The position numbers and the translations under genes are program-made. The notes under the pieces were generated by a model. That model was not told the origin of the DNA and made no database searches. It saw only the letters and a program-made list of their open reading frames with translations. 64,000 bases of DNA, from the NCBI GenBank assembly GCA_963825865.1, contig CAWGVG010000009.1, forward strand, positions 13,289-77,288. Direction: 5' to 3'. The DNA is from an uncultured Nitrososphaeraceae archaeon (lineage in GTDB: Archaea > Thermoproteota > Nitrososphaeria > Nitrososphaerales > Nitrososphaeraceae). The number at the start of each line of letters is the position of its first letter. The first letter of the stretch is position 1. This document shows, in pieces, positions 1,071 through 7,785 of this stretch.

Positions 1071-2149
1071 TTGCGGCTAGAGGACCTACCTGATGTTGAA
1101 CCATATTTGATAAATAAACTAAAAAGAGCTGGAATACAATCAGTTTTAGACCTAGCCGCATCAATCCCCATTGAACTTGCAGGAGGAGGAGATTATATCG
1201 ATGATGACAACTCCGCAATTACAGCTGACATAGAGACAATATCACAACTTGTAGGAAAGGCCAAAAAGGCCCTTGTAGGTTTCGGCGTACTTAATAAAGA
1301 GTTCTGTACAGCTGAAGAGTTTCTTGAAAAAAGGAACAATCTCGTCAGATTTACAACAGGATCTGTAAACCTGGATGCATTTTTGAAAGGTGGAATAGAA
1401 TCACAAGCAATTACAGAGATTGCTGGGGAATTTGGTTCAGGAAAAAGTCAGTTATGTCATACTTTATGCGTTACTGCTGCTGGCTAATAAGGAGAAAGGA
1501 AAACGAGTGGGAGGAGCAGTAGCAGGAGACCTTAACAGGAATAATAATAATAATATAATATTCATAGATACAGAAAACACCTTCAGGCCAGAGAGAATTC
1601 ACCAGATAGCTGAAGGCAGAGGTCTCGAGCCAGAGGAAATAATGAAAAGAGTGTTTGTATGCAAAATATACAATAGTGCTCATCTTGAAGCTATAATAAA
1701 AAATCTTGGCAAGTCTATAGAACATTACAAAGCCAAGCTTGTCATAATTGATAGCATTATCTCGCTTCACAGAGCAGAATTTCCAGGAAGGGAAACTCTG
1801 GCTGAAAGACAGCAGAGGCTCAATGTTATGCTACATAGACTGATAAGACTAGCAGAAATTTACAATGTCGCAGTAGTTCTTACAAATCAAGTTCAGTCAC
1901 AACCAGATAATTTCTTTGGCGGTATTGGTGGTGGAAACGATCCAACGTGCGGCTGGTGGTAATATAATGGGACATGCTTCTACATACAGGATTTTTCTTA
2001 GAAAGGCTGGACGTAATAGAATAGCAATAATGCTTGATTCGCCACACCACGCATACGGTCAAGCTAAGTTTACAATAAGTGAAAAAGGAGTCCAAGATAC
2101 TGACGAGGAGGAGAAAGCAAGATCAGGGAAAGCAGTAACAATACAGTGA
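1071..2149 (+). CDS. radA: RadA/Rad51-family recombinase paralog, split over 3 ORFs by two frameshifts
   Basis: N-terminal HhH-like [33 protein letters not shown]; Walker [22 protein letters not shown]; Walker [34 protein letters not shown]. Confidence 0.9.
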
Positions 2150-2185
2150 GTCTGGCTGGTAGGTAGGAGGTAGTAGCCTAGCAAC

Positions 2186-5306: not shown

Positions 5307-5337
5307 TAGGAATAATTGGAGCCATAATATAATAACA

Positions 5338-7785
5338 ATGTCAAGTTGTACCGGCTGGCTCTTTGATATTTCTATAGAACATAATCAAGCTGTCCTGTGG
5401 ATAAAAACTATCGATAGACAGATCCTTAAGCTAATAGACACTTATCAGCCAAGGTTCTACATATTACCTAAAAATGAAACTGATGGATTACATCTTTTCC
5501 AAATATTATCTCAACAACCCATAGTGGCTAAAGTTAGATGGGAGGAGGACAAGCTTACAAATCTTTTTGATCATGATTGCACTACAACAAAAAAGAAAAA
5601 ACTAATTTGTGTTTATCCACAATCCACACAGTATTATGCGCCCATTCTAAAAATATTAGAAAAAGACCAGCGAGTCAAGCAATTGTTCAATACAGATCTC
5701 TCACATATCCAGCAATATTTGTTTACCAAATTGAGAATTGAACCTACAAGCAAAGTTGAAGTCGAGTATGAGGGTACTAAGTTACTTAGAATAAGCAAAA
5801 TTGATGATGAACAAGAGGTATCTCCACCGCCCTTTTCATTACTATATTTTGACGTTCAGACATTTTCAGGAAAATTTACTTTTGAAGATCCGATTAGAAT
5901 GATAAAGGTTAGGTATGAAATTGGTGATGCAAAGGAATGGAACATGTTTCATTCCAAAGCAATGCAGAAAACATCATCCTTCAGGATTTCTCTAATTACG
6001 TGCTAGATAAAGATCCAGACATTATTGTTTGCATAGAGCGAATCTGAGAGTAAAATATTTCATTACCTATTTACACGAATAAAGAAACTTGGGCTTGACT
6101 TGCAACTTGGGAGAGAGGGCTCAGTAAAGGATCTCATGAATTTAAAGCGCCCAATGTCCAGAGTGGATCAAAGGTAGAATTTGCATTGAAAGCAGATGAT
6201 GGTAATGGTGGGATTAATAGACAACATTCAACATTTGATAATTTTGGGCTTGCAGGATTAATAGAAAGATCAAAGTTCGGTTTCGTTCCTTTGAGAATAG
6301 CTGCAAGATATGGTATAAACCGTCTAATAGATAGCAGAAACTGTTATCAATTAATCCAGAGAGGCTTTGTTATTTCAAAGAATAATCATTCTGGTGGAAG
6401 CAAGCAATAGCAACAACAACCATGAACGCATCAGGACTTTAGAGGAACTAGTCTCAAGGGATAAGGGCGGTATGATAATTTCTCCTCAGGTAGGCCTGCA
6501 TGAAAATGTTGTATCACTAGATTATGACAGCGAATACGCAAATCTAATAGTGAATCACAATCTAAGCTATGAAACTGTTACTTTACAGCAAGATGGAGTA
6601 GTCGTAGTACTACAACAATCCAATGACAACGAAGAAAGGCTTACTGCCAACAGTAGTGGAGAAATTTCTCAAAAGACGGCTCTATTTCAAGAGACTATTA
6701 AAAGAACTATTCAAAAGAGAGCATGGAGTCTCTCTGGTGCGAACAGCGTGTCAATTCACTAAAGAACATACTTGTTTGTCTTTATGGTACAACTGGTTCC
6801 CTTTGGAATAGATATGGTAATGTGCTTGTATTTGAGGAAATTAACAAGATATCTAGGGAAATATTGATAAAAACAAAGGATATTGTTCAGCAGTTAGGCT
6901 ATGAGCTGGTATATGCTGATACAGACTCGGTATTTATTAAAAAGAAAGATGCCGCTACTGCTGACACAGACCACAAGCAGTTATGAACAAGTTATAGATA
7001 TGCTGTGCAAAGAAACAGGCCTTTCAATCTCTATTGATTATAATTATAAGTTTTTAGTTCTATTACCTTGGAAGCTGACGAAAACATAGAGGCACTCAAG
7101 CATTACTATGGGATTACGCAACAAGGAGAACTAGTTGTTAGAGGTATAGAAATTAGGAGACATGATATTCCAAACTTTATAAAACAATTTCAAACTGAAT
7201 TGCTATACACGCTTTTTGATTGTAAAGATTCAGCTGAGGTAGATAAGCAAAGGATATGAAAATGGTCTTTTATTGGTTACCAAGGCAATAGATAAAATTA
7301 TGACAGGTGAAGACTTTCACCAAGAGGATCTTGTAATCTCCAAGTTGCTTGGACAGGATATAGAAAAATACAAGAGCTTATTTCCTCATGTGTCCGCTGC
7401 CATTCAATTATTAAGCAATAAAGAGAGGAGGTAAATACCCAACAAAAGGCGACACTATCCAGTATATCTATACAAATTCAAAACACAACAATCCTCTTTG
7501 CAGAGTTGTACCTTTAGAGATTTTACAAAAAGAGGAGGAAAAAGGAAAGACAGCAAGGAGAATGGTAAAACTCTGAATTATGACAAGGATAAGTACAGAG
7601 AAATGATACTTGATGCTGCAGAAACTGTTCTAGGTTATTTCGGCTTTAATAGGACTGTTTATGGAAATCCTGGGAACGATAGAAAGAAAAAGAGAAAATG
7701 GTATGAGGAATTGTATGAAGAAAGAACAAAAGATATTCAAGCAGAGATGATGATGGAAAAACAACAACATGGTAAAGCCCAATAA
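5338..7785 (+). CDS. polB: Family B DNA polymerase (PolB2-like context), multiply frameshifted in this assembly
   Basis: GWLFDI start; ExoI-position FDVQT; DKGGMIISPQVGLHENV; motif A LDYDSEYANLI..NLSYET; motif B KNILVCLYG; motif C YADTDS; KHYYG; RGIEIRRHD; YDKDKY. Confidence 0.9.

Follow-up and report, generated by a model that had tools for sequence, protein, structure and literature searches.

The closest described system is the archaeal PolB2 operon, also termed the "PolB2 mutasome", in which genes for iRadA (a RadA homologue that has neither N-terminal domain nor ATPase residues), PPB2 and the B-family DNA polymerase PolB2 follow one another (Makarova 2014, PMC4104785; Timinskas 2025, PMC11791011). 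In the sections of PMC11791011 drawn upon here, a PolB2 heteropentamer is proposed and likened to Pol V, the N-terminal arm of PPB2 is described as MGRT-like with arginines at positions 3 and 9 (section 3.3.1), the DxD motif of PolB2 is given as intact only in basal TACK members and its proofreading exonuclease domain as devoid of an active site, and an enrichment of TIM-barrel DUF72 proteins is reported. As set out in the corresponding parts of PMC7390963 and PMC8764526, a translesion role of the core operon was shown experimentally in Sulfolobus, and an operon of a PolB, a small protein and an inactivated RadA is described on NitGar-E5, a cryptic integrated element of Nitrososphaera gargensis (PMC6563490, in the portion considered here). 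We analysed a stretch of 64,000 nucleotides from an uncultured Nitrososphaeraceae archaeon (referred to as the window; contig CAWGVG010000009.1 of assembly GCA_963825865.1), in which positions 1071-7785 hold a five-gene cassette of RadA, RPA/PAZ, iRadA, PPB2 and polB. This segment is one copy of a cassette that is conserved in Nitrososphaeria and extends the known PolB2 operon.

Six-frame reading of window positions 1-12000 yielded five co-oriented regions of homology in the order RadA, RPA/PAZ, dead RadA (iRadA), small gene (PPB2) and polB, with matches far beyond chance to Pfam Rad51 (E-values of 4.5e-18, 3.2e-37 and 1.6e-11) and DNA_pol_B (1.2e-10); among the five, RPA/PAZ is the sole open frame. 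An earlier note on this DNA, in which the segment was read as a candidate archaeal mutasome, had given the regions, their orientation and their order correctly and had overlooked that the other four genes are interrupted. We consider it probable that the locus is an extended PolB2 cassette, in which iRadA, PPB2 and an exonuclease-decayed PolB are joined by a RadA paralogue and by a protein combining RPA with an Argonaute-like lobe, that this cassette is amplified in the source genome (G000; 5 Mb in 62 contigs, completeness 81.8%), and that the window copy is broken as deposited. Reading the locus as a mutasome built from a dead RadA, a small partner and a polymerase largely rediscovers a published system: the domain calls are right, and the idea was already in print, including the parallel to Pol V. 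Its real interest lies in the extension by RadA and the RPA/Argonaute-lobe protein, and in a multicopy behaviour with a constant 3' end. In the following, contigs of G000 are numbered with C, compared genomes with G and loci on contigs of relatives with L (L035 lies in G022, L085 in G076; L021 is C10 of G000).

When species-representative genomes were scanned with the RPA/PAZ protein, 16 loci came up, every one in metagenome-assembled genomes (MAGs) of Nitrososphaeraceae or of other Nitrososphaerales/Thermoproteota. Wherever the contig is long enough, the order RadA, RPA/PAZ, iRadA, PPB2, PolB recurs (L035, L039, L041, L043, L044, L045, L046, L049, L051 and L052), and iRadA follows RPA/PAZ in 14 of the 15 loci for which downstream sequence exists, all except L048, where an intact RPA/PAZ gene (824-2644) stands alone, preceded by a frameshifted RadA remnant and with no iRadA, PPB2 or polB within the next 7 kb. 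In G022 (L035) all five genes are open, encoding 348, 613, 308, 124 and 735 residues, and they abut or overlap by 7, 1 and 4 nucleotides. The cassette of G076 (L085), a genome from a different family of the class, is likewise intact and in the same order, with an iRadA-PPB2 fusion followed by a second PPB2; it is flanked by thermosome/NadA and, just downstream of polB, by an AP_endonuc_2 gene (xylose-isomerase-like TIM barrel; fusion, second PPB2 and this gene lie within L085 10909-12403 and 15098-16063). Conservation of the gene order in other genomes, on which the earlier note had made its reading depend, is thus found in L035 and its like as well as in a second family. Tight coupling of five genes together with conservation over two families argues for one machine, whose five products would act together. 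Insertions between PPB2 and polB were seen in two relatives (1.6 kb, L045 4087-5685; 2.6 kb, L046 4594-7232). Across the class, occurrence of the RPA/PAZ profile is patchy: it was found in 9 of 401 genomes including G000, namely in six of 78 other genomes of the same family, two of ten in family f21 and none of 223 in family f13.

The core trio matches the published operon. In an alignment of six iRadAs with six active RadAs, iRadA has neither the N-terminal domain nor Walker A and B (Pfam Rad51, E = 2.2e-8), and the missing Walker motifs bear out what the earlier note had said of the second RadA. PPB2 starts with MGRITPSFR in seven of eight orthologues, with arginine at positions 3 and 9; the AF2 model of an orthologue is all-helical (pLDDT 79) and has two long helices compared to the three described for PPB2, and in the PDB the PPB2 sequence matched nothing but apolipoproteins, at chance level. 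The intact polB orthologue L035:13350-15557 matched Pfam DNA_pol_B (E = 9.2e-35), and YADTDS is present in the polymerases of the window, C10, L035 and L044. No Pfam exonuclease family was matched by the L035 orthologue at E ≤ 0.01, and PDB sequence matches to solved B-family polymerases start at residue 257 or later; the position that we take to be Exo I reads DVQ in the window, DVE in C10, DLH in L044 and VEL in L035. The best match outside the cassette among paralogues in four relatives is a PolB of 737 residues (24% identity, E = 2.7e-42), located 1.7 kb from a weak RadA-like match. The cassette thus shares with the PolB2 operon the order iRadA-PPB2-PolB2, the reduced iRadA, the PPB2 arm with Arg3 and Arg9, a DxD motif intact as in basal TACK members and, apparently, a polymerase without recognisable exonuclease site; the iRadA-PPB2 fusion and the second PPB2 of G076 are both variants described in PMC11791011, and the TIM barrel beside polB in that genome recalls the DUF72 enrichment reported there.

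The RPA/PAZ protein was modelled with AF2 from a 28-row alignment (pLDDT 80.1). In the predicted structure, a first OB fold (OB1, residues ~36-151) is followed by a second one with a Cys zinc ribbon (OB2, ~141-240 and 598-621), and an Argonaute-like N-L1-PAZ-L2 lobe is inserted at residues ~260-585, with PAZ at ~415-522. Foldseek searches with the model returned Pyrococcus RPA first and then PIWI/Argonaute chains. When the model was compared to solved structures with VIA, OB1 superposed on Sulfolobus SSB 1o7i_B (Z 14.0, root-mean-square deviation (rmsd) 2.5, 108 aligned), OB2, together with the two strands that end the chain, on the core of Pyrococcus RPA 8c5y_A (Z 12.8), residues 260-585 on MILI 9ij4_A (Z 15.4, 283 aligned), residues 415-522 on the Hiwi1 PAZ domain 3o3i_X (Z 12.9, rmsd 2.5 Å, 102 aligned of a 108-residue chain), and the Argonaute-like lobe on 8znj_B, the partner chain of a Sulfolobus islandicus short prokaryotic Argonaute (pAgo; Z 11.6, 190 aligned). 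Given the matches of OB1, OB2 and residues 260-585, the Argonaute-like lobe lies inside an RPA-type protein, so that the RPA-PAZ call of the earlier note is borne out by folding and extended to two OB folds plus an Argonaute N-terminal lobe. MID and PIWI are absent from the modelled chain, which returns to the OB fold past residue 585 and ends at 628, and Pfam Piwi matched in none of five cassette-bearing genomes, with controls matching.

Sequence profiles recognise this protein only partly. Pfam PAZ matched 18 of 26 family members at E ≤ 0.01; the scores, examined for part of these 18, include 22.1 and 18.3 bits and all lie under the curated cut-off of 28.8. NCBIfam RPA models matched only residues 47-236 of the G022 orthologue (E = 8.1e-18, 64.6 bits versus a cut-off of 447), such that a full-length match to a curated RPA model is missing while the match at fold level is good. 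Cysteines 171, 174 and 182 (L039 numbering) are invariant in 26 RPA/PAZ sequences, and orthologues range from 570 to 630 residues. Homologues amount to 876 database proteins at E ≤ 0.001, or 352 cluster representatives; among the matches listed, the two with a named source both come from Nitrososphaeraceae. With archaeal RPA/SSB (Pyrococcus abyssi RPA 8oej/8aaj/8c5y; Sulfolobus SSB 1o7i) the protein shares a pair of OB folds of which the second bears a zinc ribbon (Z 12-14), and it differs from them by its score of 64.6 bits against the cut-off of 447 and by the inserted Argonaute-like lobe of ~325 residues. Structurally, residues 260-585 match the N-terminal lobe found in MILI, Siwi, KmAgo and HrAgo1 (Z 12.6-15.4), and the lobe also resembles, through 8znj_B, the N-L1-L2 (APAZ-like) partners of short pAgos; unlike in Argonaute/PIWI proteins, MID and PIWI are missing, and the lobe sits inside an RPA-type OB protein next to a recombinase and a polymerase. 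According to the part of PMC6299218 considered here, eight long pAgos carry an additional OB fold.

The first gene of the cassette encodes an active-type RadA paralogue. The intact orthologue L035:9165-10211 scored 310.9 bits on NCBIfam RadA NF003301 (cut-off 259), and the alignment of iRadAs with active RadAs showed that cassette RadAs keep the N-terminal helical domain and Walker A and B. A tree built from 21 RadA-family proteins groups the seven cassette RadAs into a single clade (support 97/93), which is sister to one set of chromosomal paralogues (94/100) and apart from the set holding the full-length chromosomal RadA of G000 (C62:104592-105308). With this RadA on C62 and other PolB genes on C27, C31 and C3, radA and polB of the cassette are not the only copies of the cell, as the earlier note had presumed they should not be. 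Cassette RadAs of L035, L039, L041 and L044 carry a conserved acidic C-terminal tail ending in Trp, which is absent from the chromosomal paralogues and could be a docking peptide. A complex prediction of RPA/PAZ with the cassette RadA, run without controls, gave a score of 0.00 in both runs and says nothing either way.

Compared to the PolB2 operon, the cassette therefore adds two co-oriented upstream genes, the active-type RadA paralogue and the RPA/Argonaute-N-lobe protein, and it occurs in multiple copies that are frequently decayed. The main text of PMC11791011 does not mention RPA, SSB, single-stranded, OB-fold, PAZ, Argonaute, "active RadA", "multiple copies" or pseudogene, although its supplements may list the five-gene form, and a literature search returned no paper linking PAZ, Argonaute or RPA with PolB2, iRadA or PPB2. 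The earlier note had named the RPA-PAZ subunit as the extension beyond what is known; neither it nor the upstream RadA paralogue was found in print by these searches. Among bacterial systems, the polymerases of Pol V (UmuD'2C-RecA) and of the imuA-imuB-dnaE2 mutasome, to which the earlier note also compared the locus, belong to families unrelated to that of the cassette. With both it would share the pairing of a RecA-family protein with a polymerase lacking proofreading, a parallel drawn for Pol V in the Discussion of PMC11791011. The operon of NitGar-E5 is similar in its PolB, small protein and inactivated RadA; as far as it is described in PMC6563490, it differs in having two small genes and neither a RadA paralogue nor an RPA/PAZ gene.

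The state of the window copy contrasts with the open frames of its orthologues (Table 1). Its RadA matches the Rad51 model at positions 1-50, 59-181 and 188-243 in different frames (ORFs 1071-1487, 1420-1962 and 1916-2149). RPA/PAZ has a 1-base insertion near 4043, which changes only the final few codons. The middle piece of iRadA contains two stops, and comparison with C10 and with part of the contigs assembled from soil runs shows single-base insertions at ~4481 and ~4558. The codon of PPB2 at which the orthologues begin (4934-4936) reads ATA, and polB has ~13 frameshifting indels relative to the nearly open copy on C10. Over RadA, iRadA, PPB2 and polB together, the frameshifts number at least 16, and one start codon is lost. 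With four of five genes interrupted, the deposited locus cannot be a working module, which goes against the self-contained module of the earlier note, and as deposited the window copy, by its sequence, cannot carry out a five-gene mechanism. The motifs that the note had pointed out are present as letters: GEFGSGKS and KLVIIDS, which we take to be Walker A and Walker B of the first RadA, in a broken frame, and DYDSEY and YADTDS, presumably the motifs with the catalytic aspartates of the polymerase.

Table 1. Features of the cassette region in the window, with positions, strands and the evidence for each assignment (ORF, open reading frame)
Feature	Position	Strand	Evidence
Zinc-ribbon-like gene, 86 residues, open	611..871	-	ORF; divergent from cassette
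RadA paralogue, three frames, at least two frameshifts, Walker A/B letters kept	1056..2149	+	Pfam Rad51, ORFs
RPA/PAZ gene, open, 628 residues	2186..4072	+	AF2 model, Foldseek and VIA matches
iRadA, three frames	4059..4915	+	Pfam Rad51, alignment without Walker motifs
PPB2, arCOG07300-type small helical protein, ATA first codon and frameshift near 5100	4934..5306	+	Orthologue alignment
PolB2-type B-family polymerase, at least 8 ORF pieces, DTD kept	5338..7785	+	Pfam DNA_pol_B, ORFs
FUN14-family membrane-protein gene, 3'-end remnant, ~80 nt	7778..7856	-	Pfam FUN14 on full gene L022:3139-3621
Second cassette copy, 5'-truncated (iRadA C-terminal part, PPB2, polB), broken	24753..28120	-	blastn, 87-92% identity to window 4366-7752

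The frameshifts of the deposited sequence could stem from decay in the organism or from errors of the assembly consensus, and we lean towards the window copy being truly dead. Indel density in the cassette is ~2.4 per kb, against roughly 0.02-0.06 per kb in unique genes of the same window, and the single-copy neighbours of the cassette are mostly long open frames (473, 643, 700, 557 and 522 residues). Several of the indels are 2-20 bases long, and the start of PPB2 was lost through a substitution. Cassette copies differ by 8-13%, so that reads would be expected to map uniquely to each copy. Frameshifted copies also occur in short-read MAG contigs of relatives, for example in L046 with shifts of -2 and -1 in RPA/PAZ. 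At 4482, 4558, 6405 and 7241 (two places in iRadA, two in polB) all covering contigs of some soil runs are without the 1-base deletion of other runs and read like the window; no run contains more than 0.20 of the sampled words of the stretch, so that none is usable as a clean check of the whole locus, and no RNA run with the stretch was among those listed. Selective survival of the RPA/PAZ gene was weighed too, as it alone is open in the window copy and is intact without its partners in L048. An open frame of 1.9 kb, as seen for RPA/PAZ of the window, would by our own arithmetic have a chance of roughly 0.002-0.02 at 2-3 indels per kb. Its polarised substitutions amount to 29 synonymous (S) and 10 nonsynonymous (N) on the window branch and to 33 S and 10 N on the branch of the broken C10 copy; as both show the same 3:1 ratio, this test cannot separate a living from a dead RPA/PAZ gene.

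Several observations weigh against the reading that we prefer, the first of them against the disruption. As the source sample may itself be among the soil runs, their match to the window cannot be taken as fully independent evidence. Between the two full-length copies, 35 frameshifting indels stand beside 93 N and 240 S differences in single-difference codons; these are mostly synonymous and mark purifying selection, and neither copy contains a nonsense substitution in ~2,100 codons read through the indels. Repeats throughout G000 are unusually indel-rich: a 1056-bp insertion sequence (IS; C9:3360-4430, upstream of the window, and 41 further places) at 98-99.5% identity keeps its 304-residue ORF in 14 of 42 full-length copies, its 61 singleton indels, almost as many as its 66 singleton substitutions, are insertion-biased and mostly outside homopolymers, and in repeats of ≥99% identity gap openings per mismatch reach 0.64. 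A single-copy gene for an aconitase-family large subunit (window 20001-21285, minus strand) is split into two overlapping ORFs, one matching Pfam Aconitase at positions 2-164 and the other up to 463, reflecting a genuine frameshift or else a fault of the assembly. The indel pattern suggests what an unpolished long-read consensus would give in repeats. Further, the polymerase was assigned to PolB2 provisionally, by its sequence; joint action and binding of the products are predicted from genes and models; and the cassette of G076, which has no mobile-element gene within 8 kb and lies among housekeeping genes, indicates that amplification is not a universal property of the cassette.

On these grounds it is conceivable, and we grant it a distinctly lower probability than true decay, that the frameshifts are consensus errors and that the organism carries an intact, working five-gene operon, essentially as the earlier note saw it. 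Recent duplicates normally show far lower indel-to-substitution ratios than the repeats of G000, and the missing nonsense substitutions, the N:S of 93:240 and the split housekeeping gene are in line with such errors. So is a completeness of only 81.8% for 5 Mb in 62 contigs, and ~50 near-identical IS copies resolved within contigs suggest a long-read assembly. The same explanation has to account for the contrast in indel density between the cassette and unique genes, the longer indels, the PPB2 start lost by substitution, the divergence between copies, the window-like soil contigs and the frameshifted copies in short-read MAGs of relatives. The truncated copies described below are structural, cannot be consensus errors and are real either way.

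By blastn against the 62 contigs, a second full-length copy was located at C10:64514-71767, 92.3% identical to the window cassette, together with at least 11 5'-truncated copies or fragments, namely the one at 24753-28120 of the window and those on C54, C57 (two), C47, C52, C36, C29, C21, C27 and C26. The 3' end of polB is thus held by 13 places, in all of which the aligned homology ends at the polB stop codon and gives way to unrelated DNA. The truncated copies begin at nine different points. Downstream flanks of the 13 places fall into at least ten unrelated groups, being shared by C10/C27 and by C52/C29 and cut short on C47 by the contig end. About eight further places in G000 hold internal or 5' fragments. 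In a tree limited to the six copies of sufficient length, these form one star-like clade (100/100) relative to three relatives. Contigs of the soil runs X1, X2 and X3 leave the window at 7763-7764 into differing sequences, and in all four soil runs compared cover is 3-5x deeper over 7006-7698, the 3' part of polB.

Cassette polB is also multicopy, and often interrupted by stops, in other genomes of the family, such as G013, G414, G421, G428, G431 and G440. C-terminal exceeded N-terminal matches in G013 (14 versus 7), G414 (13 versus 2), G421 (15 versus 2) and G428 (10 versus 2), counts which include one unrelated paralogue per genome and are biased towards C-terminal matches, as the C-terminus of polB is the better conserved. 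G440 has four polB frames of 696-745 residues without stops. In L090 (722-3376, G440:C77) a zinc-ribbon gene is followed by a nearly full-length polB, with no RadA, RPA/PAZ, iRadA or PPB2 between them, and L092 has a piece of RPA/PAZ fused to the central part of polB.

Multiple copies, patchy occurrence and frequent decay suit an accessory or selfish element no worse than a dedicated host repair system. A possible, though in our estimate not the probable, explanation is that the intact cassette is the replication/recombination module of a selfish, horizontally moving element, with the copies in G000 as wreckage of its spread. This would account for the occurrence in only 9 of 401 genomes, for multiple copies in several genera including the four stop-free polB frames of G440, for the sharp right edge at the polB stop in 13 places with at least ten unrelated flank groups and for the star-like tree of the in-genome copies; divergence of the copies under purifying selection is what working master copies would be expected to produce, IS elements lie near cassette copies, and the operon of NitGar-E5, to the extent described in PMC6563490, is a precedent on an integrated element. 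It is opposed by the failure to find an integrase, Cas1, terminal inverted repeats or a target-site duplication for the cassette, with no terminal inverted repeats or flanking direct repeats at ~580 and 7767, by the position of the G076 cassette between thermosome/NadA and AP_endonuc_2, and by the translesion role of the core operon in Sulfolobus (PMC7390963, PMC8764526, in the parts cited above). The left edge is also not sharp: a sharp left end of the cassette was considered and rejected, as the copies on C10, C14, C48 and C60 continue to the left into a family of 265-residue genes, of which the window copy retains only the first few codons.

Two more specific forms of mobility were weighed. 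Encoding of a B-family polymerase and presence in many copies would suit a casposon-like or other known self-synthesising transposon; Cas1 was not found in G000 (82% complete; controls matched), terminal repeats are absent, and the polymerase is linked to iRadA and PPB2 instead of casposon genes, so that casposons and other terminal-repeat transposons were rejected and we hold this origin for extremely improbable. A 10-kb element flanked by direct repeats of ~80 nt (window 7778-7856 and C9:11153-11211) was discarded as well, the repeat being the 3' end of a multicopy FUN14 gene; this remnant adjoins the end of polB in the window copy only and is found again at no fewer than eight other places in G000.

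A more speculative view, which we consider improbable, if less so than the casposon, regards the cassette as a DNA element able to replicate by means of the proteins it encodes, LINE-like and without reverse transcriptase or integrase. RPA/PAZ may capture a free 3' end, the RadA paralogue may pair this end with the cassette's own 3' end, and the PolB2 complex, devoid of proofreading, may then copy inward from the polB stop codon; aborted copying may leave 5'-truncated copies with a constant 3' end, and a sloppy polymerase may produce copies born with many frameshifts and few substitutions. The 13 ends at one stop codon, the nine start points and the star-like tree may be taken to fit, as may the 35 frameshifting indels versus 93 nonsynonymous and 0 nonsense differences between the full copies, and also the 3-5x cover of the polB 3' part in soil and the commoner C-terminal polB fragments in many relatives; these observations have otherwise found no explanation. 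For the excess of indels, assembly error is the simpler explanation.

The surroundings of the cassette vary between copies. The zinc-ribbon-like gene, for which no Pfam family was matched, was found by tblastn upstream of the cassette RadA in L035, L039, L040, L044, L046 and L048 and on C10, C14 and C8 of G000. Divergent from the cassette and upstream of it, L039 (1446-2243, minus strand), L044 and L046 carry the 265-residue gene, which belongs to no known family and is multicopy in G000, with broken copies at C10:63730-64525 and on seven other contigs. An ORF of 85-90 residues follows polB in cassettes of the G022 type (L035 15588-15845; L049 4342-4614) and on C10 of G000 (L021 13922-14188, minus strand); the ORF downstream of the C10 copy, of 88 residues, begins with MGRTIPSFR, near-identical to the N-terminal arm of PPB2, and by this sequence may encode a second PPB2-like protein. 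Pfam and NCBIfam gave no match for PPB2, the 265-residue upstream gene or the downstream ORFs of 85-88 residues. A family of small secreted proteins of ~106 residues, without a Pfam match, is present in the window (9-329, plus strand) and at many loci of G000, with arrays on C36, and often near cassette copies. A DDE_Tnp_1 transposase is encoded in two overlapping ORFs at 16703-17616 (minus strand).

Returning to the extended PolB2 cassette as a working system in organisms with intact copies, its products could be arranged as follows. The RPA/PAZ protein would coat single-stranded DNA and hold its 3' end, the RadA paralogue would pair this strand with a template, and the PolB2-iRadA-PPB2 core would extend the paired strand, in damage-tolerant or recombination-primed synthesis or in restart from an invading end. 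The analogy to Sulfolobus Dpo2, as treated in the sources on the core operon cited above, would make the core itself an extender or translesion polymerase complex. The copies of G000 carry two cautions: multicopy, decaying cassettes warn against reading all PolB2 operons as host repair genes, and the repeats of this assembly, in which the window locus is broken as deposited, require checking at read level before gene calls are trusted.

To our knowledge, only the three-gene core of the PolB2 machine has been modelled, and only the lone polymerase assayed. By bringing an active recombinase of its own, such a cassette would connect translesion or "extender" synthesis with strand invasion, and a single-stranded DNA binder with an Argonaute PAZ lobe offers a concrete idea of how a primer 3' end might be handed over to the polymerase. 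An Argonaute N-terminal lobe without a PIWI partner would be an unusual use of this module and bears on the evolution of Argonaute modules. The RPA/PAZ family is large, and it belongs to ammonia oxidisers of ecological weight.

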